The notes: generated by a model not told the origin, from the letters alone. Positions 36,201-58,673 are shown, counted from the stretch's first letter. The stretch: 64,000 nt of DNA from Patescibacteria group bacterium (GCA_040384485.1 JAZKJH010000003.1:71556-135555); one strand, 5' to 3'. Made by a program: numbers and translations.

Positions 36201-39200
36201 AGAAGTCCCGTTATTTGTTGTTTGACCCAAAGCTGTGTATGCACCAGTTCCCGTACTTTGGTTAAGTATGTTTATAGAAGTTACAGCGTCTTGTGTTTTT
36301 GCAACTTGCAAAAGTTGTGTTGGTCCTGATGTTCCTACTCCCACACGACCTGTATTGTCGATAGTAAAATAATCCGAAGTTCCTAATGTTCCACTTCCTG
36401 AAATTTTCAACTTATCACTATCAGAATTATCTATACCCATTGAATATTGTTGCCCACCAGTTAGGTACCATGAAATACTAGTGTCCCCTGTACTGTTTTG
36501 TTCCAACATTGCCAATGGGTTTGTTCCGGAAGTATTTTTATAAACTGTTAGTGGCCACTGTGGACTTTCTGTTCCAATGCCAACCTCACCATCTCCATCA
36601 ATAGTAAGTCTTGCTGTTCCTGCAGTTGCGAAAGCAATTGAAGTTGCAGCAGGTCTGTACATACCAGCTGATGCGTCATTTGAAAAACCGTAAGCAACAC
36701 TTGAAGCAGAACCATCTGACGTTCTTAGTGCGCCCGCAACACCTATTTGTCCAGAACCTACTTTGTAAAAACCAGTTGAAGTTTGCGAACTAAATGCTAT
36801 GGAGGGTGTTCCAACTAAACCATCTGCCACATAAACTGCAGTTGAAGAAGCTGTTCCTTGTACATCTAGTTTTGTTTGAGGATTAGTTGTTCCAATACCT
36901 ACATTTCCATTTGTACCCTCAATAGTTAAGTCAGGATATGTGTTTGATGTGCCTAAATTTAAACTAGTTGAACCTGGAGAACGCACTGTTCCACTACCAA
37001 GAAACAGTCCGTTTACTGACAAAGCATCGTTAGCAGAATCCCAAGTTAGTTGAGTTGTGTCTGTGGTTAGAGCACCCGCACTGTTATACAAAACTAGTTG
37101 ACCTGTATTAGCACCAAGAGCTGGAAGAGTCGCCCTAATCCCTCCGTTTACATCAAGGGTTGTGCTTGGACTGGTTGTTCCAAGCCCCACAAAACCACTA
37201 CTTCCCAATATACTTAGAGCGGAAGTTGTGGTCGTTGCAGTACCTGCAACAGTTGTTGTTGCTAAATAGAAGTTTCCTCCTGCATTTCTCATTACCCATT
37301 GTGAAATACCTCCTCCTGCAGAGAGAGCTAGTTGTGGTGCTGTAGCTGAGGTTGGGTTAAGTATCCATTGTGGGGTTGTTGTTCCGATACCAACGTTTCC
37401 TGTTGAACTAATAACCATTCTTTCGTTGGTAGGTAATGTTGCCACGTTTCCTATAGTGCTTCCAGCGAAAAATCTAATATTTGCAGTTGACGCAGTTATA
37501 AGATCTTCTGAGCCCCCGTTATTAACTGCTATAGTAGCCCGAAGGCCGCCACTTGGTTCCATAAGTGCTATCTGAGCATTTACACCACCGTTGATACCTT
37601 GAATCTCTAACTTTCTTGCGGTAGGTACTCTTCCAATACCTAACCATGCAGAAGATGCATCTACAACTAAAGCATTTGTACTCCCTGCTTCACCGACTCT
37701 AAAGTCTCCGTCAATATCAAGAAGATATGAAGGTGTACTGGTTCCAATACCCACATTACCAGCGTTTGTTATTCTCATCTTTTCAGTAGTCACGTCAGAT
37801 GTGTATGATCCCCCAAATGCACCTGCTGTGTAAAAAGACAACCCTGTCTCACCAGAAGCACCTTCACTTATACCAGACAATTTTGCACGAACACCTGAAG
37901 CAGCAAACGTTTGACCAGATGAAGCATCACCACCAAAAAATTGGACAGACCCCAGAACATCATCAGCAACAATTGCAGAAAAAACATTACTTAGTCTAAG
38001 TATTGATGTGTTTGAAGTTGCAGAAGAAACTTCAAGTTTTACTTGAGGGGTGCTGGTTCCAACTCCAACATTACCTTGAACAAGTAGTCCGTTTGAAGGA
38101 GCAGCTGTCGTATCATATCCAGCACCAATTGTAGCTCCTCCGGAAACAGAAAGACGAGAACCTGGTAGCAGCTCACCTACCCCCAAAGAACCATCGTCCC
38201 TAAGAGCAAGAAGGGTTGTCTGATCAGAGTTCTCAACATACATCGCATATGAAGCATTTGTATTGCCTCCACCTCTAGTAATAAACTTATATCCGGTAAG
38301 CGGGACACTTCCTATACCAACACTACCAGATGCATCGATGATAAATGGTGTGGAATCCGGGGAACTCGAGTCCTCAACAACAAAAGAAGGTGCTGACCCT
38401 GTGTTCGTTACCGAGAGTTTGCCCCACGGTGTTGTTGTTGCTATTCCAACATTTCCTGAAGAGCTAACAACTAACCTATAAGCATCACTAACATGTCCTA
38501 AACCTATGCTTTGCCCATCAGCTGCTTGCATTATTATTGGGTAGTTTGGTGCGTAAATTTGGAAAGCGGAAATATCTCCGCGAGATTGCATTACTGCTTG
38601 TTGAGTTGACCCGTTGTAAAAGGAAACTCCTGAATAACCCCCTGAAGAGCCGTAAAATCTTGAGGTGTCGGAAACAGATGTGTCTCCGATATATGCTAAA
38701 CCATTAACTTGAAGCTTTGCCACTGGACTTGCAGTCCCAATACCAACATTGTTGGTTGAATAGTCATATACCAAACCTGATGTTTCGATTGCTAACCCCC
38801 CAGCGATTGTTGATGTCGCATTTGTGGATGTGGCATTGAAGTTTCCAAAAGTTGGTGTTGAGGTTGCGACTAATGCACCAGATGAATTGGTAGAGAGTAA
38901 TGAGTTGATTGCTGTGCCCGATAAAGTAATAGCCGGAGTAACCACACTTGTTCCTACATACAACGTTCTTGGTCTAGTTGCTCCTGAGGCACCGATATCG
39001 AGAGTATTGTCTGTTGCAGCAAGAAAATGTCCCGTAGCATTTATTCTCCATTTTTGAGCACTGCCCGTCATAAACAGCAAATCTCCTGTGCTGTGTTGTC
39101 CGTATATTTCTTGAGCATTTGCAAATCTAATAGATGAACTATCACTATCAGTTCGCAACTCTCCTGTTCGGTCTCCAGCTCCGGTGCTCAACCTCCTCCA

Positions 39201-42200
39201 CTCCATAACAACACCGGAGCTTTCTCGATCTATTTGCAAAATCTGATCTTCAGTAGCAACACCTGCAGCACCAGATATGTGGGTCCGGTAACTTGGAGTC
39301 GTTCCAATACCCACATTGGCAGATGTTGTCATTCTTAATACTTCAGCAAGCGTGCCCGCTCCATTTGAAGTTTTAAAAATTAAATCTGACTTATTGTCAT
39401 TGCTTGCATAATTGTTTGCATAAATTCCACCTAGCGAGGTTGCCCCTGACCCATAAGTAAGCAAAGCTTCTTCTTGTGGGTTTCCGTTAGTTACAATTAG
39501 CCTTCTTATTTCCCCTGATACGGCTAATTTTTGAAGAGGGTTGGTTGTTCCGATACCCAGGTTCCCAGCTGTAGATAATGTCATTTTTGTAAGACCGTCT
39601 CCAGTCAAGAAACCTAAGTTGCTAGCTCCAGTAAAATCATATAACCCAGTGCCCACCATCCAGTCATTTGTTCCGGCAGTTTGGAATTGAACAGCAGAAG
39701 AGTTCCCAGAAGAGCTGCTTCTGTTTAACAAGGCGAACGCGCCGCCGTTATCCGCAGTAGCATTTAGAGTTACATTTCCATTAGTTGCCTGGAAACGAGC
39801 CTGGTTACTTATACCAGACATATGAAACTGTGCTGCTGGAGTCGCGGTGCCCAACCCAACTCTTCCGCTATTCTGCTGAACCACAAACTGACTTGTTCCT
39901 ACAGCCAGTCCTCCTGTTGCGATAGTTGACGTTGCTGTTGTCGATGTTGCATTGAAATTTCCAAATGTTGGAGTTGACGTTGCCACTATCGCACCTGATG
40001 AGTTTGTGGAAAGCAGTGAGTTGATTGCTGTGCCGGATAAAGTCAGAGACGGAGTTGAAATAGATGTTGTTGCCGTAAATATATTTGCAATAACAGTTCC
40101 ACCGTCAAAAAATCCTGAACCGGCAACTGATAGTTTATAACCTGGAGTTGTTGAGCCGATTCCAACATTTCCCGCAGAACTAAGGAACATTCCTCCTGCC
40201 CCACCACTACCATTTCCATAGAAAGCCAGGCCTCCGCCTCCACCAATATTAGTGATCTGTCCATCAATAGTCCCAGATCTCTTGATCAAAATTCCAGGAA
40301 AAGAACCACTGACTGAATCCAGGACAAGAGTCGCATTTGTTCCGGAAACGTAAAGATTATTTTGGCTTACGTTTTGAAAAGCCATTGTTCCTGACCCATC
40401 AGCAACTGAGAATTTTGTGTAAGGTGATGTAGTTCCTACTCCGACATTACCAGTTGCAGATGTTAGGTTAAGTCCACCACCTGAAGTGCTTATGGTTGGA
40501 GCGGAACCGTTTGATCCAGCAAGTGTAAGATAGTTTGTAACACCAGCAGTACTCAAAACACGAACTTGTTCCACACCACCAGCTCTCATATGAATACCTA
40601 AAGAAGAAGGACCGCTATCAAGATAAAGCTCTCCGGTAGGACTAACGGCCAAATACCCGTCAGGGTTTGTGATGTTTGCAGCTGCGCCAGATCCCTGAAT
40701 AATGTTAGAGTTTCCAAAAATAGTCCAACTCCCAGCCGTTAGGGTTTTTCCACCCGTTATTGAAACACTACCCCCACTTACTGTTCCCGTTAAAGCAATA
40801 TTACCGTCAACAGAAAACTTTTCGTAAGGACTTGTAGTTCCAACTCCAACATTTCCTCCAGCCAAAACTGTCAATCTGTTTAAACCATTTGTCTGCAAGT
40901 TCAAATCAAAAAAACCTGTGTGTCCAAAGTTGGCCGCAGTTGGTCCTGTCACCAAGTACGAAGAACCTGAACCCGAAAGAGCCACATTTCCATCAGCAAC
41001 TTGTAGTTTATAAAACGGATTACTTGTCCCAATACCAACATTCCCACTATTCTGTTGCACCACAAACTGACTTGTTCCAACTGCGAGACCTCCTGTTGAA
41101 ATAGTTGAAGTAGCAGTAGTAGATGTCGCATTAAAGTTTCCGAATGTAGGAGTTGAGGTTGCAACTATTGCTCCTGATGAATTTGTAGAAAGTAGTGAAT
41201 TAATTGATGTGCCAGAAAGTGAAATGGATGGAGTAACAACAGAGGTTCCGAAGTATCCTGTTCTCCATGTATTACCTACTGCTCCTATGTCTGCATTATT
41301 ATCTGTAGTGGGAACAATATTTATTCCATTTCCAAGAGTTAGATTTCCAGTTGAGAGTCTCATTCCCAAAGTTCCATTTACTGCCCATCTCAATGCACTT
41401 GATTCTAGATACATTCCGTATCCAGAGTTGCTTGCAAAAGTATATGATGGTGTTGTCACAGAACCAACACTTGCTGTAATTGTAGAAGTTGCAGTAAGAT
41501 TACTTGCAACAACTGTTCCTCCGTCAAAATATCCACTACCAGCAACTGATAGTTTATAACCAGGAGTTGTTGAACCTACACCGACATTTCCGCCGCTCGT
41601 TATCCTCAATCTTTCTGAGTACGTGCCCGCATCTCTAGTTGCGAATGAAAGCTCAGCACTAACAGCACTTGGGGTATGGCTTGTAAAAATAGCGTTAATA
41701 CTAGCTCCAGTCCCAAGAACTCCATTCGTATCCATTGTCAGAAACCTATTTTGAGCAAAATTATTATTTGTGGTATCAGTGTTTATTAAATTCGATGACG
41801 TGTCGTTAGAAAGTCCGCTAACGGTGTATGTAGAATCAGAACTACCCGAAACAACGAGTTTTGCACCTGGAGCTGTCGTCCCAATTCCCACACGGCCCGA
41901 TGAAGTCACGTTGAAAGTGGACCCCCCAATTGATGCCACAGAAGAGAAAAGATTGGTGGATGAAGCTGTTGTTGAAAATAGATTTGTTGTGGTTGCTGAT
42001 ACTCCAGTTGAATTAACAAAGCTAAAGTTTTGTAGAGTTGTAGAACCTGTTAGCAACAAGTTTCCAAAATTTCCTGTTCCTGTTGTTGTTATGTTTCCTG
42101 ATCCGGCGTTGATAGTGTTGTTGTTTGTAACAATTCCATTTGTCCAAGTTCCGGCAATTTCTAGCGCAGTTGTCCCTGTTCCTGTGTTACTTATATACAA

Positions 42201-44921
42201 ACCATTTTCTGTTGTTCCTGTTCCGGTATTAATCACTGAGAGCAATCTTTGTATTCCGCCTGTGGTGTTGTTGGTTAGTAACCCTGAGTACAAGTTCGCC
42301 GCGGTAGAAATAGAAGCATCGTTTACTGTGTATGTTGCGTTGAAAGGATAGTTAACAGACAAATATCGCAAATCATTTACTCCTGAGTTCCATTGGAAAG
42401 TTGCATTTCCAGAACCAGAGTTTCGTTGGAATATAACTGCTTTCAAATTATCTCCTGCCTCAGATGAACCGATAGTCCAAGTGTCGCTACTTGTATCTCC
42501 TGTAACCACAGTACCAGACAGGTTGTTCGCGGTGATGGTGTTAAAGTAACCATTTTTCCAATAGAAAGATGGTGAACCGATAGAGTTGTTGTTGGAAGCA
42601 AAGTCCGCTGTTGGTCGCAAAGCTCCGGTTGAGTCGAAAACTATTTCATTACTCCCGCCTGGATTAAGCGACAGAAGTGTTTTGTCTCCAGAGCCAACCC
42701 CTGCGCCAGTTACGTTTATTTCTAATGCACTATATCCTCCACCTGCAACAGTAGAGTCAATAAGATCTATTACTTGTCCTCGACTTATTTGTCCGTTACC
42801 TGCGTTTGCGGTTATTTCTTGTTTTATTAAATTTCCAGAAGTTATTGCGTTGTCACGAACAGTAAAGATATCACCTGTTGCAATAGTTGAGTTGATAAGA
42901 AATGTTCCGTCATTTTGCTGATAATCGTTTACATATAAACTATCAAAAACTCCAATGCTTGAAAAAAAGTTGGTGGTGGTTGCATTTGTTCCAGTGGCAT
43001 TGGTGAAAATTAGGTTTGTTAGATCTATGTTTCCAAATGTTCCGTTGTCTGTGCTCAAGTTTGCAATGTAAGAATTTGTGGTGGTCGCATTGGTGGTTGT
43101 TGAGTTGGTTACATTCAATCCTGTGATTGTAGAAAGAATAGAACTCAAATTATCAATAGACCCTGTACTTGATCTGAACAAGCTTGAAAACAAACTTGTG
43201 GTTGTCGCATTTGTTCCAGTAGCATTAGTAAATAAAAGATTTGTTAAGTCCGAAGATACAGAAGTTAGATTGGCTATATTTGCGTTGGTGGCAAACATGT
43301 TGGTACTGGTTGCATTTGTTGTTGTGGAATTTGTAATGTTCAATCCGGTGATTGTGGCGATAGCAGAAGTAAGTGAATCCACTGATCCTGTGGTTGCATT
43401 CAGTAGTGAAGTAAAAAAGTTTGTTGTGGTGGCGTTTGTAACTGTAGCAAAACTGCCCAGAATGTTTGTCCCTGTAAAGTTAGTTACAAAAGAGTTGGTG
43501 GTAGTTGAATTTGTTACATTAAGCCCTGTGATTGTTGCCAATGCGGAAGATAAAGAATCTATTGAGCCTGTGCTTGCATTAAAAATACTAGTGAACAAGT
43601 TAGTGGTTGTGGCACTAGTAAAAAGACTGTTTGTTCCTGTAAGGTTGGTTATAAAAAAGTTCGTGGATGTGGCATTTGTCAGGGTAGACCCATTTAAAGT
43701 ACTGTTATTTATTACTGCATTTGATATCGTTCCTCCTGTGATAGTTGGGTTACCGACAGTAACATTGGTTAAATTATCGATTTTATTTGTATGAGCTATT
43801 TGCTGATATACATTTGTTATTGCATTGCTACTTCCAGTAGAAAGACTAGCGAACCTTCGTGCTAAATCAGAGTTTAGAGCGATTGAGAATTCTTGTATTT
43901 TTCTATCGACATCCATACTTGTTAAGGCAAGAGTTGGTGCTGGTTGAATAAGTCTTTCTACAATTCTTTCCACGACAGGGTTATTTATTACGGTGGTGTT
44001 GGTTACTTGTTGTGGCTGTTGGACGGGTAGTCTAGGAGTTGAGGGTTGCTGGGTAGGTGTTGGATTAACTACTGCTACTGTAGTAGGAGTTTTATTTTCA
44101 ACCAAAACTGTACCAGTCGGAACTATGCCGTCCTCAAACCAACCATTGATTGTGTTGTAAACAAAAGTACCTCCAGCATTTAAAGGTTTTAGAAGAGCGT
44201 CTGTTATTGCACCAAAAACACCCGCAGTCATTGATCCCAAATCCTGTGAAAAAACTTGCTGTCCAAGTTCCATAGCTACCTCAGGAATATTCTTGGAGTT
44301 TCGAGCAAGAGATCTCAAGTCATCATTTTTTACCATTAAGACTGTGGCGAGCATTGCAAGAGAAACTGCACCAACAACAAAAAACTTTCCTTTGTTATTT
44401 TTTACTACTGCATTTATGTTAGGGATCTCAGATTTAACCTCGGGAATAGTGACCAACATTGGTGCGCTAACTATTACCTCTGGACCTGCAACTGGAACAA
44501 AAACTATTTCGTCCTTTTTTTGCACCCCAAGATTTTTTGAAAAATCGAAAGTAGTTGGAGTATTTTTGTATTCCAAAAGAGACTTCTCTTCTACATACCA
44601 TACCTGCCCTATTCTTCTTGACTCCACCTTTCCTTCACGGCAAAGTTTTCCAATATAGTCACGTGAGTAGCCAGTCAAGAAACTTGCTTGCTTAACAGGA
44701 AGATAGTTTTTCTCACTTTTTGGTGCGGGTGCATTCGCTGACAAACTCCTGTATTTCAAGATGGACTCCTCTCCTACGTACCAACTCTTCCCTATTCTTT
44801 TAGAAAGGATTTTGTTGTCACGACAAAGTTCGCCAATATGCTCTGTTGAATAAGAAGTTAAAGTGCTAGCTTCTTTTACTGAAATGTATTTTTTATTTCC
44901 GAAAATTAGATCAGAACTCAT
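33285..44921 (-). CDS. Giant surface protein 1 (3878 aa), Gly/Thr/Ser/Asn-rich with tail-fibre-like repeats. Contains two N-terminal MerR-like HTH motifs, one TM, a C-terminal intramolecular chaperone (peptidase S74-like) and a DUF5011-like Ig domain.
   Basis: Single uninterrupted ORF. N-terminal repeats KYISVKEASTLTSYSTEHIGELCRDNKILSKRIGKSWYV / NYLPVKQASFLTGYSRDYIGKLCREGKVESRRIGQVWYV; TM FFVVGAVSLAMLATVLMV. Repeated modules SLLSTNSSGAIVATSTPTFGNFNATSTTATSTI and ...SGNVGIGTT.P..KL.V. Near the C-terminus SDERLKDIQ...YSWK...GFIAQNIQQAIPDAV. C-terminal domain IPPVITITGSANLQIPLNSNYSDLGATVTDLDDENN... Confidence 0.85.
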   Translation of the reverse strand: MSSDLIFGNKKYISVKEASTLTSYSTEHIGELCRDNKILSKRIGKSWYVGEESILKYRSLSANAPAPKSEKNYLPVKQASFLTGYSRDYIGKLCREGKVESRRIGQVWYVEEKSLLEYKNTPTTFDFSKNLGVQKKDEIVFVPVAGPEVIVSAPMLVTIPEVKSEIPNINAVVKNNKGKFFVVGAVSLAMLATVLMVKNDDLRSLARNSKNIPEVAMELGQQVFSQDLGSMTAGVFGAITDALLKPLNAGGTFVYNTINGWFEDGIVPTGTVLVENKTPTTVAVVNPTPTQQPSTPRLPVQQPQQVTNTTVINNPVVERIVERLIQPAPTLALTSMDVDRKIQEFSIALNSDLARRFASLSTGSSNAITNVYQQIAHTNKIDNLTNVTVGNPTITGGTISNAVINNSTLNGSTLTNATSTNFFITNLTGTNSLFTSATTTNLFTSIFNASTGSIDSLSSALATITGLNVTNSTTTNSFVTNFTGTNILGSFATVTNATTTNFFTSLLNATTGSVDSLTSAIATITGLNITNSTTTNATSTNMFATNANIANLTSVSSDLTNLLFTNATGTNATTTSLFSSLFRSSTGSIDNLSSILSTITGLNVTNSTTTNATTTNSYIANLSTDNGTFGNIDLTNLIFTNATGTNATTTNFFSSIGVFDSLYVNDYQQNDGTFLINSTIATGDIFTVRDNAITSGNLIKQEITANAGNGQISRGQVIDLIDSTVAGGGYSALEINVTGAGVGSGDKTLLSLNPGGSNEIVFDSTGALRPTADFASNNNSIGSPSFYWKNGYFNTITANNLSGTVVTGDTSSDTWTIGSSEAGDNLKAVIFQRNSGSGNATFQWNSGVNDLRYLSVNYPFNATYTVNDASISTAANLYSGLLTNNTTGGIQRLLSVINTGTGTTENGLYISNTGTGTTALEIAGTWTNGIVTNNNTINAGSGNITTTGTGNFGNLLLTGSTTLQNFSFVNSTGVSATTTNLFSTTASSTNLFSSVASIGGSTFNVTSSGRVGIGTTAPGAKLVVSGSSDSTYTVSGLSNDTSSNLINTDTTNNNFAQNRFLTMDTNGVLGTGASINAIFTSHTPSAVSAELSFATRDAGTYSERLRITSGGNVGVGSTTPGYKLSVAGSGYFDGGTVVASNLTATSTITASVGSVTTPSYTFASNSGYGMYLESSALRWAVNGTLGMRLSTGNLTLGNGINIVPTTDNNADIGAVGNTWRTGYFGTSVVTPSISLSGTSINSLLSTNSSGAIVATSTPTFGNFNATSTTATSTISTGGLAVGTSQFVVQQNSGNVGIGTSNPFYKLQVADGNVALSGSGSSYLVTGPTAANFGHTGFFDLNLQTNGLNRLTVLAGGNVGVGTTSPYEKFSVDGNIALTGTVSGGSVSITGGKTLTAGSWTIFGNSNIIQGSGAAANITNPDGYLAVSPTGELYLDSGPSSLGIHMRAGGVEQVRVLSTAGVTNYLTLAGSNGSAPTISTSGGGLNLTSATGNVGVGTTSPYTKFSVADGSGTMAFQNVSQNNLYVSGTNATLVLDSVSGSFPGILIKRSGTIDGQITNIGGGGGLAFYGNGSGGAGGMFLSSAGNVGIGSTTPGYKLSVAGSGFFDGGTVIANIFTATTSISTPSLTLSGTAINSLLSTNSSGAIVATSTPTFGNFNATSTTATSTIATGGLAVGTSQFVVQQNSGRVGLGTATPAAQFHMSGISNQARFQATNGNVTLNATADNGGAFALLNRSSSSGNSSAVQFQTAGTNDWMVGTGLYDFTGASNLGFLTGDGLTKMTLSTAGNLGIGTTNPLQKLAVSGEIRRLIVTNGNPQEEALLTYGSGATSLGGIYANNYASNDNKSDLIFKTSNGAGTLAEVLRMTTSANVGIGTTPSYRTHISGAAGVATEDQILQIDRESSGVVMEWRRLSTGAGDRTGELRTDSDSSSIRFANAQEIYGQHSTGDLLFMTGSAQKWRINATGHFLAATDNTLDIGASGATRPRTLYVGTSVVTPAITLSGTAINSLLSTNSSGALVATSTPTFGNFNATSTNATSTIAGGLAIETSGLVYDYSTNNVGIGTASPVAKLQVNGLAYIGDTSVSDTSRFYGSSGGYSGVSFYNGSTQQAVMQSRGDISAFQIYAPNYPIIMQAADGQSIGLGHVSDAYRLVVSSSGNVGIATTTPWGKLSVTNTGSAPSFVVEDSSSPDSTPFIIDASGSVGIGSVPLTGYKFITRGGGNTNASYAMYVENSDQTTLLALRDDGSLGVGELLPGSRLSVSGGATIGAGYDTTAAPSNGLLVQGNVGVGTSTPQVKLEVSSATSNTSILRLSNVFSAIVADDVLGSVQFFGGDASSGQTFAASGVRAKLSGISEGASGETGLSFYTAGAFGGSYTSDVTTEKMRITNAGNVGIGTSTPSYLLDIDGDFRVGEAGSTNALVVDASSAWLGIGRVPTARKLEIQGINGGVNAQIALMEPSGGLRATIAVNNGGSEDLITASTANIRFFAGSTIGNVATLPTNERMVISSTGNVGIGTTTPQWILNPTSATAPQLALSAGGGISQWVMRNAGGNFYLATTTVAGTATTTTSALSILGSSGFVGLGTTSPSTTLDVNGGIRATLPALGANTGQLVLYNSAGALTTDTTQLTWDSANDALSVNGLFLGSGTVRSPGSTSLNLGTSNTYPDLTIEGTNGNVGIGTTNPQTKLDVQGTASSTAVYVADGLVGTPSIAFSSQTSTGFYKVGSGQIGVAGALRTSDGSASSVAYGFSNDASAGMYRPAATSIAFATAGTARLTIDGDGEVGIGTESPQWPLTVYKNTSGTNPLAMLEQNSTGDTSISWYLTGGQQYSMGIDNSDSDKLKISGSGTLGTSDYFTIDNTGRVGVGTSGPTQLLQVAKTQDAVTSINILNQSTGTGAYTALGQTTNNGTSYLYTFGSGYTTSGRYIQDSMLLEANLVGGLSLAATDASGVIRFYTNGNNERMRVASTGNVGIGTTTPTAARLTVADTSNTYSGFFQGSGSYAVGLGGGSAGAQIQGYTGTFATANLSLQVGGGNVGIGTTDPGARLTISNAITGGAIGTAFQQEIVNPTAGTVGDWTGTVYRWIANNANTNQAYIGAVLTSGAVNTSSDLVFGVKASTAVTAISEAMRIKAGGNVGIGTTNPTFPLSVQSNSGANGISIIGRSNGSVDEGTLTFLDNDNSTTQAYLQSNGTKLGIFATGGVGIGLSSPTQTLEVKGIVGLQATNSTNFWGMYNHTDNTFRLNYNNAGNDEMVIESTGDIGIGTADPAHKLDILGDSVRFSASGNQSTYINAGTTSNYAQLIYSQAGTQKWNVYSSNNATPNLEFASSGGDIRVAIEQGGDVGIGTASPDSKLSVSGSVAGSIATFYNTEANDGNGVYIKAGGVNSAKYALVVDNNASANLLTVLANGGVGVGTSIPSSYAKLAVSGGVTNSIATISGAFGVDVNAVMLGNDGTDGVIGMQNSGTKLHLLSRAGGVFTKSFTLDSAGNVGIGTTDATNKLTVAGAVSTVPFAVKVGSSNKLSLEIQSDGDTSLYMYNAANGLTNYFQSDGPSVIGGGTFAVTNLVSCGGIQTNGSGTMSCTSDERLKDIQSEFTSGLSAINQINPQTYSWKTDSGLYDNGVLYSGFIAQNIQQAIPDAVNTNPSGTLQVNTTTILAAAINAIQELDLNTGSRLTNLEQIVASSTPESTGINFNDVLDGFVNQFETVGAKFVDGIAYFKNIIADRLTVGSSSNPTGITIYDEVTNDPYCMKMRNGAMVSVAGICGTQAPEEGGGDPEPEPETIEEGPTDSIPPVITITGSANLQIPLNSNYSDLGATVTDLDDENNANNNLGIYFNVNGVDMLSVSISTNATATHTIVYSAMDEGGNWSYATRTVEVIEEVIE

Positions 44922-45540
44922 TAACCTAATTATATATTTCTTGTAAACAATAAAGTTTCAAAATATGTTGATAATTAGCTAAATAACGGCCATCCGGGGT
45001 TACAAAACAGGACGATATTTTGGAAAAATTTAGCCAACTTTTACATCCACAAATGCTAATTATTTTAAGCAAAAAGAATGCCGAGCAAATTAGTCTAATT
45101 ACTAACCTAAATAGCTGCGCTTTTCCCTGTAAAGCTAGGGGTATGGAGATATTGGAAGGATGGGGTTCTTATGAAGGACTAAAAATTTGATTGGTATGTC
45201 ACAAACGCCAAATTTATATATAAAAGTTGATAAATTTTATTAAATTTCATTGCATCTTTATCAAGGTTTATTCTGGTTTGCAGTATTTATAGCTTGTATT
45301 TGATACTGAGCTTCTGACTATTGGTCCCCACTTGTTTGAGTTGATGAGACTAGCATGGTGCCGACAACCTAAGCTAGGGGGCGACTTCTTTGTTCCCTTC
45401 TCATGTACCTCAATGACCGAGTAAGGTAATTTATTTTTGGCAACTAATGAATTTCAAATATCCAGAATTACAAAAAGTCCTATTTTTCATAGAATAGTTA
45501 CAAATTATTTATAAAAAATGTCAATGCCCGATTTATAAAT

Positions 45541-48500
45541 CTATTCTTCTATCACTTCCACACTTCTCGTCGCATAACTCCAGTTCCCTCCTTCATCAAC
45601 AGCTGAGTAAACTACTGTATGGATAGTTTCCGTAGCTGTATCTAGTTGAATACTTTGTACATCTACTCCGTTTACATTGAAGTAAATTCCTAAGTTGTTG
45701 TTTGCATTGTTTTCATCATCTAGGTCTGTGACTGTTGCTCCTAGGTCAGAGTAGTTAGAGTTTAGTGGTATTTGAAGTATTGCACTTCCGGTTATACTTA
45801 TTACCGGTGGGATTGAATCGGTTGGGCCTTCAGGTTGTTCTTCTGGTTCATGTGACGGTTGGTTGTTTCCAGAGTTTGCGAGAAGTGAATCTAGTTGAGA
45901 TTTAGTTATACAAGTCTCCCCACTTTCGTCACTTACACAGACTTCTTTCGTTCTAATTCTGTTTGCGAAGAAATCCCCAATTCCGTTACTAGCATCTGCA
46001 AACCAAGATTTCAATTTGTCAGTTAGTGAAGTAAAGTGTGTTTCTATTGCACTGACAAAACTAGATACATAACCCTCTTCAGGTTCGACGAATTGGTATC
46101 CCAACTTTACAAAAGTTAGTATTTTATCTTTTTCAGAACTAGAGTCTTCCATGGCAACACCGATACTTTGTCCTGACTCTGTCATTTTCATGGCGTAACC
46201 AGTACGAGTCATAGAAGTAGTCAGGTAGTCCCCTACTTTTATAATTCCGTTCTCTTCTGAAATTTTTACAGGAACTCGTCCAGCTAGTGCCAAAGGATAA
46301 TCATTGTTATTCTTTTGTCCGAACTTTAACCCGCCTATTCCCAACGAAGTACCGATACCATCACCCAGTGTAATACCTGGTGCAGTGGATACAATACCAG
46401 CAAGAGTTGATGATGCGTTTCCTGCTTTCATGATTTTTTTGTCTCCACTCGGGTCAAACACCACCACATCTCCTGGTTCTAATATTTCATCACTTGGATA
46501 ATTTTCGGCTATATCGGCAGAACCATTGATTTTATAGACCATAATGCGCCAAGAATAACTAGGGCTTGTTAATGATGAAGCACTTTTATTAAGTCTCATG
46601 CTCCAAGATCCAGTCCAAGGTGTAGTAGCAGTAACTTGGGCACCAAACATCACTGGAATTGTAGCTGCTACATATGCAGGCTTACCCCATCCATTTACAC
46701 TAATTTGTGTGCTGGAGGTTGGGTCTGGTGACATATAAAATTCAGCGGAGCTGTACCATCTCACCCCCGTACTTTCAGACCATGCTCCTGGTTTTAATTC
46801 CCCAGAGTTAACTAGTGCCACACCATCTGAGTGATTAAGGCTAATCGTTGGAGTGCTTGCTGGAGAACGATCATCGTTAGTAGCAAAACTGTGTTCCACC
46901 ACAACAAATAATTTATCGTCGGAAGTAAGCCCTGTAATTGGGATATCTGCCACGTTCACTGAGGAGTTAGAGGTGCTTGTGCCCTCACTTATGGCGACGA
47001 GTTCCATTCCACCATGAGAAGTCACTGTTCCTGTAACATTCACATTGCCGTTTACATTTAATTTATAAGTCCCAGGGTCAGTAGTTCCAATACCAACATT
47101 TCCGGCAAAGTAATTATAAGCATTCGCATCAGAAGCATAGAAAGAATACTTGTTTGTTTGGGTTCCAGTTGTTATGTCTCCTATATATGCCCCGTAGGTA
47201 TTTGTTATGTTTCCAGTTGCATTTGTAAAGTCATCCACCCTCAAACCATACAAGTTTGTTATGGCTGCTGCATTAGCTGTTAAGTCCGCATCAAGTAAGG
47301 CAACATTTGTTGCCGTAAAATTTGCTGCAAATTGAGCGGCCCCATAAAGCCCTCTAGTTGTTGTGACTGTTGAACCTGCTCCACCTGATGACATTGAAAC
47401 AAACCCTAAGGCACCTGTAGCATTAGTAATAGTTGTAGATGCAGTTAAACTAACTTGGTTATATGAACCATATGTACTTGTGAGAATAGCCTCAGCATTA
47501 ATATTACTTAGACTCTCTGAACCAGTTATCCCGAAAAGTCTACCTGTGCCTTGATGGGCCACACTTGAATGTGTGCCTACCAATGTCATAGAACTGTGTC
47601 CAAAAGTACTACCAACTGGAGTAGAAATGTAGTTTTCTATTCCTCTATAAGTTCTTGCCCCGGAAGGATCCCCAGTTAGACTAACTTGAGTCTCAAACCA
47701 ATTTGATCTATAAGGAGACGATGCCGATGCTGGATTTGGATCTGTAATTATTTGTGTAGACAGTAACGCACCAACCCCTCCTGTAGCTCCTGTTATTTGT
47801 CCGGTGTATGTTTGCCAACTATCTAAGTTGTTTAGTGATAGTTTAGCTCCAGGAGTTGTTGTTCCAATACCAACATTTCCAGAACTATCTATTATCATTC
47901 GTTGGTTAACATCAGCCGAACCACCCGTGTAAAATCTCATATCTCCTCCAGCGTTGGTCGCAGATAAAGATAGACCACCTATACGTGAGCTGTTGATACG
48001 GATACTGTCTGCGATGGCTGCTCCTGTAGTGTTATAACCGGTTGAATACACACTTATTCCTCCAGCAGCGGCAGCTCCGTCGTTACCGAATTGTAGATTT
48101 GTTATAGCTGCACTACCTGAACTAGTATTGCGTGCTCTAAAAAATACATTATTACCGTCACTAGAATTCAAAAGACTAAGAAAAGCTGATGTGCTGTCAT
48201 ATGTTAGTGTCCCACCTATATCTAAAGTTGCTGTGGGGTTTGTTGTGCCAACTCCAATTCTTCCACTACCTTGTTGAACAACAAACTGATTTGTTCCAAC
48301 TGAAAATCCACCAGTCGAGATGGTTGAGGTTGCTATTGTAGATGTAGAAGTAAAATATGAGTTGATTATATTGTTACCAAGTATATCCCCTGCTACAGAA
48401 AGTTTTTGTCCTGGTGTTGTAGTGCCAATACCAACGTTACCGGCAAAGTAGTTTCTAAGGGCTGTAGATGCTTGATACAAACCAAATGCGTTTGTCCCCG

Positions 48501-49932
48501 CAATACTGTCTATATATACACCATATCCGTTAGTTATAGTTCCTCCTGTGTTTAGACCTTGAACATGCAGACCGTATGCAGATGTCACGTTTGCGCCTGC
48601 GTTGAAAGTTTGAGTGTATGCTTTAAGTCCTGCCATAGTAGATATGTCAGATGCTCCATCTACATACACTATTCCGTTAGCACCTACAGCTTGAGTTACA
48701 TCGCCTGTATTTTCTATATCCGCCAAAAACATTCCTCCAGTAATTGAGGATATTGTTCCCGTTCCCCAATAATCAGCTACCCCATACACGCCTCTTATGT
48801 CAGAGTTTGAGTTTTGAGAGTTTGTTGAAGGAACCTCTACAACACCTTGAAGTCCTGTTTTGATGTTTGAATTAGTTCCAGAATAATCAGCGACTAGTTT
48901 TGCATATGCACCAACTGTTCTATCACTAGCACTAGTAGTATTACCGTCTATATACATTATTGGAGCGACATTAGTCAAACCTTCAAACATAGTTGCCAAG
49001 CCTCCGGTTCCACTTCCTCTCAAATGAAATTGTGATGCTGGAGCCAATGTTCCCAAACCAATCCTTCCACTGTTCTGTTGAACAAGAAAATTATTTGTCC
49101 CGACCAATAATCCGCCAGTTGAAATGGTTGTGGTAGCTGTTGTAGATGTGGCGTTGAAACTTCCAAAAGTTGGGGTTGTTGTGGCCGATATGGTGCCAGA
49201 ACTATCGGTAGATAGCAGTGAGTTAGCAGATAATCCAGACAAAGTAAGACTAGCTACCGAAAAACTGTCAGCTGAAAGTGTTGTGGCATTAACCGAAACG
49301 CCGCTTATAGTTCCTCCGGAAATAGCTGTATTTGATATTGTTCCGTTTGATATTGTGGGATTACTAAATGTAACATTGGCTAAGTAATCTATCTTGTTGG
49401 TGTGAGCTATTTGTTGATACACGTTCGAGATAGGAGTATTAGAGCCAGAAGAAAAATTGTTTATTTTTTGTGACAATTCCGAAGCAAACTTGTTGTTTGT
49501 TTGGTTTAATGCAGACTGTAGATGTTCTGTGGTAACAAAATTATTTGATACAACCAACTTCTCAACCACTCTCTCAACAACAGGGTTAGTTATGTTTTGA
49601 GTTATATGTGTAGTGGTGGCTATTGAAGTAGGGATTGTTGGTGAAGTTGGGTTGTTTGAAGTCGGTTCGGAAGTGCTATATATAGTATTAGCAGTTTGAG
49701 CTCTATTGCTAGAGCCGATACTTGTTTCTATTTTTTGGGCAAATTTCGCACCAAAACTCTCGACGCTACTAAAAATACTTTTAATAAAACTTGTAACCTT
49801 TGCTCCGGATTCAAATACAGAGTTGATTGAAAAAGCTGCTGTTGGAGTTGGAGCGAAAATAATACAAAGAACTATCAACCCTGAGATGAGTTTGGTTGTT
49901 GCTCTATTCTTTTGTGTTTTAAATGTTTTCAT
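45541..49932 (-). CDS. Giant surface protein 2 (1463 aa), paralog of proteins 1 and 3; signal peptide, same conserved N-proximal and C-terminal DUF5011-like modules
   Basis: MKTFKTQKNRATTKLISGLIVLCIIFAPTPTAAFS signal; shares NPVVERVVEKLV, VYQQIAHTNKIDYLANVT, SLLSTDSSGTISATTTPTFGSFNATSTTATTTISTGGLLVGTNNFLVQQNSGRIGLGT and C-terminal IPPVISITGSAILQIPLNSNYSDLGATVTDLDDENN... with the other two. Confidence 0.85.
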   Translation of the reverse strand: MKTFKTQKNRATTKLISGLIVLCIIFAPTPTAAFSINSVFESGAKVTSFIKSIFSSVESFGAKFAQKIETSIGSSNRAQTANTIYSTSEPTSNNPTSPTIPTSIATTTHITQNITNPVVERVVEKLVVSNNFVTTEHLQSALNQTNNKFASELSQKINNFSSGSNTPISNVYQQIAHTNKIDYLANVTFSNPTISNGTISNTAISGGTISGVSVNATTLSADSFSVASLTLSGLSANSLLSTDSSGTISATTTPTFGSFNATSTTATTTISTGGLLVGTNNFLVQQNSGRIGLGTLAPASQFHLRGSGTGGLATMFEGLTNVAPIMYIDGNTTSASDRTVGAYAKLVADYSGTNSNIKTGLQGVVEVPSTNSQNSNSDIRGVYGVADYWGTGTISSITGGMFLADIENTGDVTQAVGANGIVYVDGASDISTMAGLKAYTQTFNAGANVTSAYGLHVQGLNTGGTITNGYGVYIDSIAGTNAFGLYQASTALRNYFAGNVGIGTTTPGQKLSVAGDILGNNIINSYFTSTSTIATSTISTGGFSVGTNQFVVQQGSGRIGVGTTNPTATLDIGGTLTYDSTSAFLSLLNSSDGNNVFFRARNTSSGSAAITNLQFGNDGAAAAGGISVYSTGYNTTGAAIADSIRINSSRIGGLSLSATNAGGDMRFYTGGSADVNQRMIIDSSGNVGIGTTTPGAKLSLNNLDSWQTYTGQITGATGGVGALLSTQIITDPNPASASSPYRSNWFETQVSLTGDPSGARTYRGIENYISTPVGSTFGHSSMTLVGTHSSVAHQGTGRLFGITGSESLSNINAEAILTSTYGSYNQVSLTASTTITNATGALGFVSMSSGGAGSTVTTTRGLYGAAQFAANFTATNVALLDADLTANAAAITNLYGLRVDDFTNATGNITNTYGAYIGDITTGTQTNKYSFYASDANAYNYFAGNVGIGTTDPGTYKLNVNGNVNVTGTVTSHGGMELVAISEGTSTSNSSVNVADIPITGLTSDDKLFVVVEHSFATNDDRSPASTPTISLNHSDGVALVNSGELKPGAWSESTGVRWYSSAEFYMSPDPTSSTQISVNGWGKPAYVAATIPVMFGAQVTATTPWTGSWSMRLNKSASSLTSPSYSWRIMVYKINGSADIAENYPSDEILEPGDVVVFDPSGDKKIMKAGNASSTLAGIVSTAPGITLGDGIGTSLGIGGLKFGQKNNNDYPLALAGRVPVKISEENGIIKVGDYLTTSMTRTGYAMKMTESGQSIGVAMEDSSSEKDKILTFVKLGYQFVEPEEGYVSSFVSAIETHFTSLTDKLKSWFADASNGIGDFFANRIRTKEVCVSDESGETCITKSQLDSLLANSGNNQPSHEPEEQPEGPTDSIPPVISITGSAILQIPLNSNYSDLGATVTDLDDENNANNNLGIYFNVNGVDVQSIQLDTATETIHTVVYSAVDEGGNWSYATRSVEVIEE

Positions 49933-49953: not shown

Positions 49954-52900
49954 CTACTCTCCACCTTCACCACCCTCTTCTGGTAATTCCTCTGGTGGAC
50001 CTTCGACCGTTTCTTCTATAACCTCCACCGTCCTAGTTGCATAACTCCAATTCCCTCCTTCATCCATAGCTGAGTAAACTATTGTATGGGTAGTTGTTGC
50101 ATTGGTAGATATAGATACTGAAAGCATATCTACTCCGTTTACATTGAAGTATATTCCTAGGTTATTGTTTGCATTGTTTTCATCATCTAGATCTGTGACG
50201 GTTGCTCCTAGATCTGAGTAATTAGAGTTTAGTGGGATTTGTAGGTTAGCACTTCCGGTTATGGTGATTACTGGTGGGATTGAGTCTCCTGATTCTGGGG
50301 TTTCTTCTTCCTCAGGTTCGTTGTTTTGTTCTTGCACCAAATCCAGCAAGGCTCTGATATCATCTTTTGTTAGACATTCGTCATCCACACAGATTTTCTC
50401 GTTTGCAGTAAACACGTTTGCAAACATATTCCCTATTCCGTTTGTTGTCTCACTAAACCATGCGACTAGTTTTGTTTTTATTCCTGTCCAGAAAGCGCTT
50501 GCAAAACCATCTGCCTCAGTTGTATTGGTTGTATTTATTCCAGCAATAGTTTCTAGGTTTAAATTCATCTCTTGAATTGATTTAACAATTAGCGGCGTTA
50601 TCCTTCCGTAATCAACTGCCCACATATCATCTGGATTTGCTGGAACACTAACTGCGGTTGGGTAAATATCATGTAGTTCTTGCGCAACAAAACCTGTTTG
50701 AGGAGTGTTGTTCAAGTCAGATGTCATTGTATAATCACGCACCTTTATTGCCATTAGATCGGAAAGTTTGTAATGCGTATCTACAATTCCTGATTTTGCT
50801 CTAACATCTGAAGTTGTGTTATATGTCGTAGCACTTCCAGTGTATGTGACAGAGCCCACTAGCTCACTGCCATCACCATCGTAGAAATACAGCAAGTTAC
50901 CTGCGCCACCGTTCGCGTGCTGTCCTGCGGCTATACCAACACCTCTAGCATCAGAATTATTTCCATCATTGTGAAAAAATGCTGCCCAGTTCGCAACCTC
51001 AGAAATTTTTACTTGTAATTGTCCTGCACCCACTGTTGGGGTTCCGACAGTAACATTGCCAGTGCTCAAAACAGTCATTAGTTCAGTAGATCCATCAAGA
51101 AAAGCCAGCCCTGCGATATCATCAGTAGCAGCTTCTCTTATAGTTGCCAAATTAAATGAATCGGTTCCACTAGTGTGAGTGAATCTTAGTTGAGTATTTC
51201 TCGCATTCGCAGCCCCACCACCAACCTCAACAGAAAGTTTTGCTCCTGGGGTGGTTGTTCCGATACCAACATTTCCGGCAAAATAGTTGTAAGCTCCCGT
51301 GTCAGAAGCGTAAAAAGAATAGGGGGTGTTGGTTTGAGTGCCAGTAGTTAAATCCCCCGCATAGTATGCGTAAGTATTGGTTATAGTACCGGAATTAGAT
51401 AGGACGCTGGCTTCGAAAAGATTCAGGGTAGTAACTGTTGATGCACTGGCGAACGTTGCTCTTGATCTTACACCTATCGCTGAGGTCACGGTACTACCTG
51501 TACTTGTTGGATTCAAAACTACTCCTGAGTCTAATCCTTGGAGAGTTGTTACTGTACCGGTGCCCGCAATAGATGCAGAAAATAAACCAGCTGAAACCAG
51601 AGATGCTGTTGCAGATCCTGCAAGTTGAGCGCTGGAATCTAAAGCTCTTATTGCGTTAACCTGCCCAGTACCTTGATGATAGGCGCCTATATGATTTCCT
51701 GTTAATGACAAGTTTGAATGACCAAAAGTACTCCCAACTGGTGTAGAAATATAAGTTTGAACACCTCTATATAGTCTGGATGATGAAGGATTCCCTGTTA
51801 AATTAATTTCAGTTTCAAACCAGTTTGATCTGTATGGACTTGCAACTACAGGGTCTGGGTCAGTTATAGTCTGAACAGATTTGAAAGCTCCAACACCACC
51901 ACTTACTGAAGCGGAAGTTATTTGGTTTGTGTAAGAACTCCAATTGTTCGTATTTGCGATATCTAATTTTGCACCAGGAGTAGTTGTTCCAATACCAACA
52001 CTTCCAGCAAAATAGTTTAATGTGTTATTGTCTGAAGCATATATTGAATACTCACTGCCAGATTGTGTTCCGTTTGTGATGTCTCCTATATACAGACCAT
52101 ATGTGTTACCTGCAATGGTTCCGAGGTTTGATAGATCCGCTACCTCAAAATGTTTGACGTCAGTAAGTAGGTTTGCACCTGCAGAACTCTGATAAAAAGT
52201 TGCTTTTACAACCGTGCTCGTTCCCATTGTTCCAATATTCGCACTAATAGCATTTAATGCCATTGAGGTTGTTGCAAAACCCAAACTTAAAGACCTGGCT
52301 CTGACACCATCCATATCTTTGTTGTAACCAGAGTTTATAAAAGTGAAGTCCCCTGCTCTTCCTGTGGTAATAGTTCCTCCAGCAGAGTTTGATACCCAAC
52401 CATAGGTACCGACAGCATCAGTTATTGTTCCTCCACCTGTGTTCAGAACTTCTCCGTAATTGGTCCATGCGCCACCAATAGTTCCAGTTCCTGCGTGTTT
52501 AACTGTGTTATACAAACCGTACATATATCCTCCATTTTGACTATTGCCACTGACAGTGCTCAATGCCAAACTTTGATTGAACACCGTGTTTGACCATGAA
52601 CTTGTTGGGTTAATGCTTGTGTATACCGCTGAGTTTGCAATACGAGTCACCCCGGAAGCGTATGACGGATCAGTTATTGTGGATGAGCTGATATTTCCAA
52701 TATTATACAAACTTCCGGAAGCTGGATTTGTGAAGGTAATATTTGTAGACGGTAAAACTGTGTTTACTATTGTTCCTCCAGTTGGTGCAACAGTTAGATT
52801 TCCATTTGTAGAAACTGTTAGTGATGTATAGTTGCTTGCATCGTAACCAAGACGAAGTTGTTCAGTGGTAGAAAGGGTGTGGAGTTTAGCCGCTGGTGTT

Positions 52901-58320: not shown

Positions 58321-58673
58321 TACTAATATTTTATCTATCTAATCAACTGTGTAGTGGAATTCATTGGGGAAAAGTGAAAGATTAAAAACAAGCCTAATTA
58401 CATAGGTAATTACATGATGTTGGTATGGATTCCTAATCAAATACTTCTACAATAAAGTCGTAAATTTTTTATGTTACTGTTCCACATGGTCATGCGACCA
58501 CTGCTCGGCTTCGCACGGTTGCAATCAATAATCAAAACTTACAACCATGGCTTCATACTAGAAATTTTCGTGTTAGCTCACCGACAACTTATCCACTTTT
58601 GTAACATTGCTAATAGATATTAAAGGATATAATATTGGTATATACCTTTATCAATGTTTTTATAAGTACAACT

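Follow-up and report, generated by a model that had tools for sequence, protein, structure and literature searches.

The stretch of DNA analysed here, a 64-kb window from a Patescibacteria group MAG, carries three giant paralogous genes on the minus strand. The first, g1 (33285..44921, minus strand, ATG at 44921), encodes a protein of 3,878 aa that is deposited at NCBI as MES3005008.1, a ‘tail fiber domain-containing protein’. Upstream of it lie g2 (45541..49932, minus strand; 1,463 aa), which starts 21 nt past the g3 stop codon, and g3 (49954..58320, minus strand; 2,788 aa). Divergent from g3 is a gene for an 80-aa soluble MerR-type protein (58674..58916, plus strand) that matches both PF00376 and PF13411 in profile searches, and such a gene recurs as a conserved divergent neighbor of genes related to g1 and g3.

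The N-terminus of g1 consists of two HTH_17-type winged-helix repeats, at residues 10–57 (44751..44894, minus strand) and 71–118 (44568..44711, minus strand). Pairwise alignment of the repeats gives 27 identities over 50 positions (54%), with a BLOSUM62 score of 156 versus 22.5 ± 4.5 over 1,000 shuffles (z ~30). Both were matched by the Pfam profile HTH_17 (PF12728; E = 4.1e-11, 43.4 bits versus a cut-off of 27), and g1 scored 30.5 bits against the TIGR01764 ‘excise’ model (cut-off 28.8). AlphaFold2 modeling of residues 1–135 (mean pLDDT 89.9) yielded the element order beta-alpha-alpha-beta-beta-alpha, twice. A pair of MerR/excisionase-type HTH repeats had been proposed from an initial sequence-only reading of this locus; profile homology in both repeats and the winged-helix model bear this out, and by profile score and fold the g1 HTHs are predicted members of the HTH_17/TIGR01764 excisionase class. 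The g3 protein possesses a single HTH of this type (residues 10–57, nt 58150–58293, minus strand), identical to g1 repeat 1 at 31 of 57 positions, followed by a weakly hydrophobic segment at about residues 126–144, FG-GAP repeats, a Peptidase_S74 domain and an Ig-like domain. No HTH was found in g2 by Pfam profile search; it has only an N-terminal signal anchor, then stalk and Ig-like modules.

Structural comparison with Foldseek placed one g1 repeat on the Pukovnik Xis (TM 0.72–0.74, rmsd 1.8–1.9) and on BldC (TM 0.73), with RacA and CbpM (3ucs) also among the fold matches. The best fold match for the tandem was TraN (E = 9e-4), which was also the sole PDB match by sequence profile, at a borderline E = 0.07. 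The Pfam search reported no match to the MerR and MerR_1 profiles (PF00376, PF13411) in g1 or g3, only to HTH_17. A classical MerR regulator was rejected as a description, since no long coiled-coil dimerisation helix and C-terminal effector domain follow the HTH; what comes after alpha3 in g1 is a second HTH or else the disordered linker that leads to the TM helix. Homology to ToxR was likewise ruled out by the absence of Trans_reg_C (PF00486, the OmpR/PhoB-type winged helix), which had no match in g1 at E ≤ 1, and homology to RodZ by the absence of XRE-type HTH_25 and DUF4115, neither of which matched g1, g3 or 56 relatives.

The cytoplasmic linker that follows the repeats (residues 119–176; 44394..44567, minus strand) is about 58 aa long, shorter than the ~100 aa first estimated, and mostly disordered. 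Its conserved TFDFSKNL motif has a short helix at residues 127–130, and residues 132–175 are modeled as disordered (pLDDT<50). A V/P-rich hydrophobic stretch at 139–157 was considered as a helix and rejected, as it too is modeled disordered at pLDDT<50. The N-terminal region has one TM helix, at residues 177–199 (44325..44393, minus strand), with KNNKGK on its N-side. Across 281 relatives, K+R residues flanking the TM helix average 3.40 on the N-side versus 1.34 on the C-side, and the N-side is the richer in 223 proteins versus the C-side in 23 (p=8e-36). Because of this charge bias we place the N-terminus inside the cell, and the inferred N-in, C-out topology of g1 is further supported by g2, in which the shared stalk module comes straight after a plain signal anchor. 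The cytoplasmic N-terminus and single TM helix of the sequence-only reading thus hold, as does its giant ectodomain, although this measures ~3,680 aa and not 3600.

Past the TM helix lies a stalk module, NPVVERIVERL ... NVYQQIAHTNKIDNL (43722..43982, minus strand), that is common to g1, g2, g3 and two giant relatives (P0025 and P0058). Near the far end of the ectodomain is a Peptidase_S74 intramolecular-chaperone domain (PF13884; residues 3578–3635, 34017..34190, minus strand), detected at 47.8 bits versus a cut-off of 22. This domain starts with an S-D-x-R-x-K motif, SDERLK at residue 3578 in g1 and SDVRAK at residue 2504 in g3, and we take SDERLK to fit the Ser-Lys dyad. Profile and motif together mark g1 as a putative Peptidase_S74 tail fibre for which self-cleavage and trimerisation are predicted. 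The C-terminal Bact_surface_Ig-like domain (residues 3790–3872; 33306..33554, minus strand) is near-identical across g1, g2 and g3.

The N-terminal module of g1 defines a large family: a threshold of E<1e-3 gives 3,898 cluster representatives, and E<1e-10 still gives 624. A hydrophobic segment follows the HTHs in 135 of the 150 best-scoring members and in 26 of the 27 proteins of ~250 aa that have a single HTH, and hundreds of Paceibacteria proteins share the order of one or two HTH copies, linker and TM helix. Beyond the tether comes either a short tail or a giant tail-fibre-like ectodomain. Many members have an extracellular tail of only ~50 aa; in small relatives the TM helix lies near residue 256, and Peptidase_S74 is absent from these small proteins. 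Sensing by a giant ectodomain therefore cannot be the module's general role. The g1 N-terminus recurs in other giant proteins (P0007, P0025, P0058), a point that the sequence-only reading had suggested checking. Furthermore, a ~320-aa gene encoding two HTHs and a TM helix lies directly upstream of an HTH-bearing gene, mostly a large or giant one, at 64 of the 71 related loci. The module is the signature of an extensive CPR (Paceibacteria/Parcubacteria) protein family, apparently not described before, whose members are almost always membrane-tethered. The architecture had been called atypical, which is true among bacteria generally but not within this lineage, where it is standard.

We then compared 493 unique family repeats, in which helix 2 is the most conserved element: D27, Y28 and R34, the last at the helix end, are each present in 98%, L32 in 97% and Q31 in 81%. 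A basic wing residue, R/K41, is found in 78%, and net charge per repeat is modest, at +1 to +4. Repeat 1 of g1 departs from the near-invariant positions (E27, H28, E31) and its face is acidic; the helix 2 of repeat 2 is canonical (D-Y-I-G-K-L-C-R). Near-invariance of this helix fits one common ligand. Helix 2 is the recognition helix of BldC (PMC5859096), and the family counterpart of its base-contacting K26 is the invariant Asp. An invariant helix 2 face would be expected equally with a conserved protein partner.

Upstream of the family genes examined we found no canonical −35/−10 promoter. Instead, they share the design TATCCACA-N31-TATAAT-N7-ATG. In g1 (44929..44974, minus strand), which lacks a −35 element, the box TTATCAACA (44966–44974) is followed by 31 nt, TATAAT (44929–44934), 7 nt and the ATG, and the transcript is probably leaderless. 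The g3 promoter (58328..58373, minus strand) has the box TTTTCCCCA, 31 nt, TAAAAT, 7 nt and ATG, and that of the MerR gene (plus strand) has the box TTATCCACT (58589–58597), 30 nt and TATAAT (58628–58633). A scan of the window for box-N28-44-TA[ATC]AAT returned only these three sites, with spacers of 30–31 nt; as the pattern was tuned on them, only its absence elsewhere is informative. The design is also found 5′ of family genes at further loci (L085, L086 and L078-L082). In Kaiserbacteria-type giant promoters, box-like 9-mers occur at +12, +23 and +34 in 28–45% of cases versus a 1.5% background, and at these loci the box lies 5′ of secA too, while only 6 of 80 small two-HTH genes have it. The 9-bp box matches the DnaA-box consensus, TTATCCACA, exactly, and its 11–12 bp phased arrays resemble DnaA oligomer sites. 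DnaA may read the box, and the soluble MerR-type protein is as good a candidate regulator as the tethered HTHs.

Taken as a whole, the explanation we favor, at a probability of about 45%, is a fibre anchored by HTHs that read DNA at the membrane. In this explanation, g1 would be a type-II (N-in) membrane-anchored, tail-fibre-like surface protein, probably trimeric, whose cytoplasmic end presents tandem excisionase/MerR-type winged helices of a Paceibacteria-specific HTH_17 subfamily, tethered through the disordered linker and TM helix. Each tethered domain would read ~9 bp of DNA, with the units arranged head-to-tail on direct repeats in the manner of BldC and Xis. A more tentative step takes the TATCCACA-type box or box array in front of the family genes themselves as the candidate target; the tethered HTHs would then control the fibre genes from the membrane, much like ToxR, either as an activator or through feedback. 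Such ToxR/CadC-like logic is compatible with the −35-less promoters, the 9-bp box and the Kaiserbacteria-type phased repeats. Of the activities considered, DNA binding at the membrane appears to be the best supported. As the family genes share a promoter box, the surface of this ultra-small bacterium may be wired straight to its DNA.

It is possible, although on balance rather unlikely, that the HTH fold was instead recruited for protein binding and serves in the cytoplasm as an anchor, an adaptor or a means of clustering. Such a module might keep the fibre in the membrane when it is pulled, link the small two-HTH TM protein to the giant one, or sequester the soluble MerR at the membrane in an Mlc/PtsG-like feedback. 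HTH folds do bind proteins: that of RodZ binds MreB, and the MerR-like CbpM binds CbpA. The nearly constant tethering of the module, often almost without an ectodomain, is consistent with this role, and one HTH type in both members of the gene pair fits homotypic or shared-partner contacts. The helix 2 face is invariant across paralogues, unlike that of typical transcription-factor paralogues, and it carries an invariant Asp and is acidic in g1 repeat 1. The presence of CbpM among the fold matches and the recurrence of the soluble MerR gene point the same way. However, to our knowledge DNA is the ligand of almost every HTH_17, Xis and MerR-type domain characterised so far, and the closest structural matches are DNA-bound. 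The basic residues conserved in the wing (R/K41) and at position 34, where helix 2 ends, and the lack of RodZ homology, also argue against a protein ligand.

A more doubtful alternative is that DNA binding by the tethered HTHs lacks operator specificity or extends to many sites. They would form a RacA- or Noc-like nucleoid-membrane tether that keeps the chromosome at the surface fibres, while DnaA or the soluble MerR reads the boxes. RacA is among the fold matches, several tethered HTH proteins occur per locus, the box and its arrays are DnaA-like, and the promoter of the conserved soluble MerR gene itself bears the box; the invariant recognition face argues for a defined ligand and against non-specific binding. 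Finally, a Notch- or MYRF-like release, in which contact with a host or assembly of the fibre sets off proteolysis and the tandem HTH leaves the membrane as a soluble regulator, could draw on the MYRF-like union of DNA-binding-fold domains, TM helix and self-cleaving Peptidase_S74 in one polypeptide (PMC3742443) and on a long juxtamembrane linker that is a plausible protease site, but it is very improbable given that the S74 domain lies ~3,380 residues past the TM helix, outside the cell, where cleavage would free only the C-terminal ~300 aa and not the HTH, that the neighborhood shows neither a site-2-protease signal nor a dedicated protease gene, and that small family members have no S74 domain.

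Returning to the favored reading of DNA at the membrane, a bolder form of it, which we consider a long shot, is that the giant fibres are host-contact receptors whose HTHs, like those of the small two-HTH TM paralogues, read TATCCACA box arrays 5′ of the fibre genes and of Kaiserbacteria secA. If true, a single polypeptide would lead from surface to promoter, and a giant adhesin would be its own membrane-bound transcription factor. This could let episymbiotic CPR bacteria couple attachment to expression with very few conventional signaling systems.

Several known systems share parts of this design. Similar to g1, TraN (ORF14/AM32) of the Enterococcus pIP501 type IV secretion system (PDB 4pm3, 4p0y, 6g1t) has two excisionase/MerR-like HTHs in one chain, and it binds double-stranded DNA. 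Unlike g1, it is soluble, without linker, TM helix or ectodomain, and its halves form a rigid internal dimer, whereas in g1 a flexible loop lies between the repeats (pTM 0.53; rmsd 17 Å over both units). BldC of Streptomyces, the lambda and Pukovnik Xis proteins and RdfS are single-domain winged HTHs with the layout of the g1 repeats; the elements of BldC (a1 14–21, a2 25–34, b 38–42 and 45–48, a3 51–60) correspond to those of g1 repeat 1 (a1 15–22, a2 26–34, b 40–43 and 46–50, a3 51–63). BldC and the excisionases occupy 9-bp direct repeats head-to-tail (PMC5859096), which the 9-bp boxes of the family promoters and the 11–12 bp phasing in Kaiserbacteria-type giant genes resemble. However, BldC and Xis are free monomers that oligomerise on DNA, whereas the family has one or two units covalently tethered to the membrane, with D27 and Q31 at the base-contact positions where BldC has K26 and R30.

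Transmembrane transcription regulators have been defined as proteins that unite a recognised DNA-binding domain with one or more TM regions (Demey et al., 2023; census in PMC10269533), and g1, with its HTH_17 repeats and TM helix, has this operational architecture and is a putative regulator of this kind. Like g1, ToxR, CadC and TcpP carry a domain of DNA-binding fold at a cytoplasmic N-terminus, which a single TM helix connects to an extracytoplasmic part; their target-type promoters, like those of the family, have upstream direct repeats and no good −35 element, and the family gene pair recalls the adjacent membrane proteins of ToxR/ToxS and VtrA/VtrC. In contrast, their DNA-binding domain is OmpR-type (Trans_reg_C) and not HTH_17, and their ectodomain is a small sensor domain and not a 3,680-aa fibre. 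RodZ is also bitopic, with a cytoplasmic N-terminal HTH, linker, TM helix and extracytoplasmic domain, but its HTH is XRE-type HTH_25 with DUF4115, and its TM helix lies near residue 110 versus ~256 in the small relatives. RacA, the Bacillus subtilis chromosome anchor, similarly couples DNA to a membrane-associated site through a MerR-like winged HTH, although it is soluble, polar via DivIVA and a symmetric dimer on DNA. MYRF, a type-II membrane protein, joins its DNA-binding domain and TM helix to a trimerising, self-cleaving Peptidase_S74/ICA domain of phage-tailspike type (PMC3742443). The same three elements occur in the g1 polypeptide, although its S74 domain is at the far extracellular C-terminus and the DNA-binding domains are unrelated, Ndt80-type in MYRF and HTH_17 in g1.

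The sequence-only reading placed tandem excisionase/MerR-like helix-turn-helix (HTH) motifs at the start of g1, the 3,878-aa giant protein encoded at 33285..44921 (-), and this assignment is borne out by profile matches, structure prediction and fold comparison. The ORF is identical to NCBI MES3005008.1, labelled 'tail fiber domain-containing protein', from a 225-kb contig of a Patescibacteria group MAG. Its tandem repeat spans residues 10–57 and 71–118, with 27/50 identities and a repeat-against-repeat alignment score of 156 versus 22.5 ± 4.5 for shuffles. Both repeats are matched by Pfam HTH_17 (E=4.1e-11, 43.4 bits, cut-off 27), and g1 also passes NCBIfam TIGR01764, 'excisionase family DNA-binding' (30.5 vs a cut-off of 28.8). 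The AlphaFold2 model of the HTH pair, built on a 24-sequence alignment, has a mean pLDDT of 89.9 and the order beta-alpha1-alpha2-beta-beta-alpha3 in each repeat, with a less confident inter-repeat joint (pTM 0.53).

As compared by Foldseek, single repeats resemble mycobacteriophage Pukovnik Xis (TM 0.72–0.74, rmsd 1.8–1.9 Å) and also match BldC (TM 0.73), RacA and RdfS, while the repeat pair matches TraN of pIP501 (E=9e-4). TraN is a dsDNA-binding protein with two such HTH units, as in the g1 pair, although the orientation of the units differs (rmsd 17 Å). A sequence search of the PDB with the g1 protein alone gave no match, and TraN was the sole match, at a borderline E-value, when a profile was used. 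By homology, g1 does not belong to the ToxR, MerR or RodZ families.

In the model of residues 1–260, a single helix at 177–199 follows a disordered region (residues 132–175, pLDDT<50) and is preceded by KNNKGK. The disordered region includes a V/P-rich hydrophobic stretch at 139–157, which we considered as a second transmembrane (TM) helix and dropped, given that it is Pro-rich, contains Glu, is disordered in the model and is missing from the relative P0001. Across 281 family proteins, the 15 residues flanking the TM segment contain 3.40 Lys+Arg on the N-side versus 1.34 on the C-side, and 223 proteins have more on the N-side as against 23 with more on the C-side (Wilcoxon p=8e-36). Furthermore, g2, the neighboring 1,463-aa giant protein, carries a stalk module common with g1 directly after an ordinary N-terminal signal anchor. 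Taken together, the TM helix, the charge bias and the g2 comparison indicate that the HTH pair is cytoplasmic and that some 3,680 residues lie outside, in agreement with the single-pass topology and cytoplasmic N-terminus first proposed; the linker, put there at ~100 aa, measures ~58 aa instead.

Gly, Ser, Thr and Asn abound in the g1 ectodomain, which starts with the stalk module common to g1, g2 and g3 (the latter a 2,788-aa giant protein) and ends with a Peptidase_S74 intramolecular-chaperone domain bearing an SDERLK motif and, after it, an Ig-like domain. On the model of phage tailspikes and MYRF (PMC3742443), we infer that g1 may be a trimeric fibre with a self-cleaved C-terminal piece. 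Neither the HTH nor the S74 motif is found in g2. The C-terminal Ig-like domains of g1 (33306–33554), g2 (~45544–45800) and g3 (~50020–50270) are near-identical in protein and the three proteins are diverged outside them, which suggests recent gene conversion or domain shuffling among these domains.

When the N-terminal 210 aa were used in a word-indexed search for homologues, only two proteins were returned; the family became visible only by an exhaustive HMMER search with g1 residues 1–210, which yielded 3,898 cluster representatives at E<1e-3, of which 624 reach E<1e-10. Two repeats are present in 141 of the 154 proteins retrieved after this search, and a hydrophobic segment follows the repeats in 135 of the best 150 relatives. 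The majority measure 300–350 aa; small two-repeat ORFs from related loci (n=84) have their TM segment near residue 256 and a tail of ~51 aa. Another class of ~250 aa combines one HTH, a long acidic linker, a TM segment (present in 26/27) and a short tail. The N-terminus of g1 also recurs on giant relatives, namely P0007 (1,699 aa, two repeats and S74), P0058 (1,995 aa, two repeats) and P0025 (at least 1,009 aa). Named sources of relatives are Zambryskibacteria, Kaiserbacteria, Parcubacteria, Paceibacterota, Nomurabacteria and Minisyncoccia; the 'Saccharibacteria' label on some relatives comes from auto-labelled TPA records. The viral collection IMG/VR, queried with the Kaiserbacteria-type alignment, contained no relatives of the module, and a full-text literature search gave no account of a CPR HTH_17-tethered family or of giant fibres bearing one. 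One protein, P0234, was considered as a family HTH joined to a Y1-transposase-like domain and was dropped when Pfam gave no support.

Outside the HTH repeats, further elements are conserved within subgroups. Within about residues 150–230, Kaiserbacteria-type giants (L006–L083) share a polar, strongly conserved TM segment (..EFxHKxVALxLAxMLTFGTYAxVDPxYA..) and a conserved helix after the HTH (FLVxQEYxKSxRxESLxxERxREY), which suggests specific oligomerisation or partner contacts in or near the membrane. In small proteins with two repeats and a TM helix (2xHTH-TM; e.g. P0042, P0051, P0124), KDALLAAVQAESVG lies right after repeat 2 in an otherwise disordered linker that also has a conserved [FY]xxDxGDL[LM]P, and the tail has a conserved PELxYxR at its end. 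Such motifs resemble docking sites for partners.

Genes of the family occur in conserved pairs. Among loci of species-representative genomes, a ~320-aa 2xHTH-TM gene is followed by a same-strand ORF starting with a family HTH in 64/71 evaluable loci, and the HTH begins at a median of residue 5 of this ORF. Complete downstream ORFs exceed 1,000 aa in 12/20 cases, and 22/44 of those cut by a contig end are already longer than this. In loci with Pfam data, the downstream ORF has Peptidase_S74 and an Ig-like domain. The gatB gene lies closely upstream in these loci and also in the window (58976..60391). No small 2xHTH gene is found in the window, where only g1 (two repeats) and g3 (one repeat) match the family HMM. 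An origin of g1 by joining of a small 2xHTH-TM gene to a giant gene was considered, and HMM scores do not distinguish it from internal duplication: HMMs of small-protein repeat 1, small-protein repeat 2 and the giant-protein repeat give similar scores for the repeats of g1 and g3.

Immediately 3' of the small 2xHTH gene (L009, L025, L029, L031 and others) lies an inverted repeat, CCGAGATAC...GTATCTCGG. This is probably a terminator, in which case the small gene and the giant gene would be transcribed separately. In the window, a near-perfect hairpin with a 20-bp stem and T-runs on both flanks and strands (58921–58966) likely serves as a terminator in both directions between gatB and the MerR gene, which converge; g3 would then require its own promoter. 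About 900 nt past the 3' end of g1, a class A bacterial RNase P RNA (32032–32380 (+), 122 bits) is located between a TPR-protein gene (29520..31898, -) and a 278-aa ORF (32400–33236 (+)) with a clear TonB_C domain (E=6e-19). The Patescibacteria lineage is generally thought to have no outer membrane, and TonB_C is unexpected there.

Genes of the family also have a distinctive promoter box in common. In 43/67 loci, Kaiserbacteria-type giant genes have TTATCC[AC]CA ~85 nt before the start codon, and box-like 9-mers (at least 6/9 matches) recur at +12, +23 and +34 in 28%, 45% and 35% of these promoters, compared to a background of 1.5%. They are followed by CTAGTAAAAT, present in 34/67 loci. The box equals the DnaA-box consensus. 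It is also found ~300 nt upstream of secA and within the secA coding sequence of Kaiserbacteria-type loci, and we therefore abandoned it as an operator specific to giant genes; the box is the mark of a small regulon rather than of a single gene. Only 6/80 small 2xHTH genes have the box. In L006–L083, the TTATCCACA box ~300 nt before secA (e.g. L001 3570) and the TGCAATAAT -10-like element after it are followed by a conserved ~250-nt leader with a hairpin. This leader has no Rfam match (L001 locus), and could represent a so far undescribed secA leader under common control with the fibre genes.

Counting both strands, the 64-kb window contains exactly three copies of a composite of the box, 28–44 nt and TA[ATC]AAT, upstream of g1 (44929–44974), g3 (58328–58373) and a small MerR gene (58589–58633). 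All three have a spacer of 30–31 nt, for which local shuffles gave a mean of 0.11; the pattern was tuned on these sites themselves, so that its absence elsewhere in the window is the only independent information. The same design, TATCCACA-N31-TATAAT-N7/8-ATG, also precedes P0001 (L085 9948–9993), P0007 (L086 9948–9992) and the 2xHTH genes of L078–L082. With the -10 element only 7–8 nt from the ATG, the mRNAs are probably leaderless. A canonical -35/-10 pair is lacking near both g1 and g3, which fits activator-dependent promoters, and the 620-nt (g1) and 350-nt (g3) upstream regions contain no obvious repeats or known RNAs.

The MerR gene (58674..58916, +), divergent from g3, encodes an 80-aa soluble protein that matches MerR, MerR_1 and HTH_17 and is not matched by the family HMM. 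A 75%-identical gene is divergent next to P0007 (L086 9383–9622, -) in otherwise different surroundings, and homologues (E ~1e-29) are divergent next to the 2xHTH-TM genes of L078–L082 (L078 9511–9873, -). This protein may be what truly regulates family genes, may partner the tethered HTHs, or may do both.

The architecture of g1 is secure; the activity of the tethered HTHs is inferred. Among 493 unique repeats, helix 2 is the most conserved element (D27 98%, Y28 98%, L32 97%, R34 98%, G30 86%, Q31 81%), alongside W47 (99%) and the wing residue G44 (90%). Repeat 1 of g1 is off consensus (E27, H28, E31) and repeat 2 is on it. Helix 2 is the recognition helix of BldC, where R30 and K26 contact bases and protomers bind head-to-tail, each on one 9-bp direct repeat (PMC5859096). 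A helix-2 face invariant across paralogues and species points to a single common ligand, which could be either DNA, in the form of a shared motif, or a shared protein. We favor DNA binding at the membrane, at a probability of roughly 45%, with the box arrays as a tentative target. The leading alternative, possible but less probable, is that the module binds protein or serves as an anchor. It is doubtful that the module is a non-specific nucleoid tether with the boxes read by DnaA or MerR, a scheme that accommodates the likeness to the DnaA box and the recurring MerR neighbor and against which the invariant helix-2 face speaks. Proteolytic release of the HTHs is very unlikely, since the S74 domain, g1's self-cleavage candidate, sits across the membrane from the HTHs.

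CPR/Patescibacteria account for much of bacterial diversity, and every cultivated member lives attached to other microbes. The family described here is lineage-wide and unannotated, and fixes a module with a DNA-binding fold to the inner face of the membrane, often at the cytoplasmic terminus of a giant surface protein that resembles tail fibres. If the module binds protein, it would be a new case of the HTH fold reused as a membrane scaffold; if it binds DNA, it would represent transmembrane regulation, or chromosome-to-surface coupling, in a new and very direct form. With membrane DNA binding as the favored reading, the ToxR-like logic proposed earlier is plausible, and g1 falls within the single-pass transmembrane transcription regulators as Demey et al., 2023 (PMC10269533) define them operationally.
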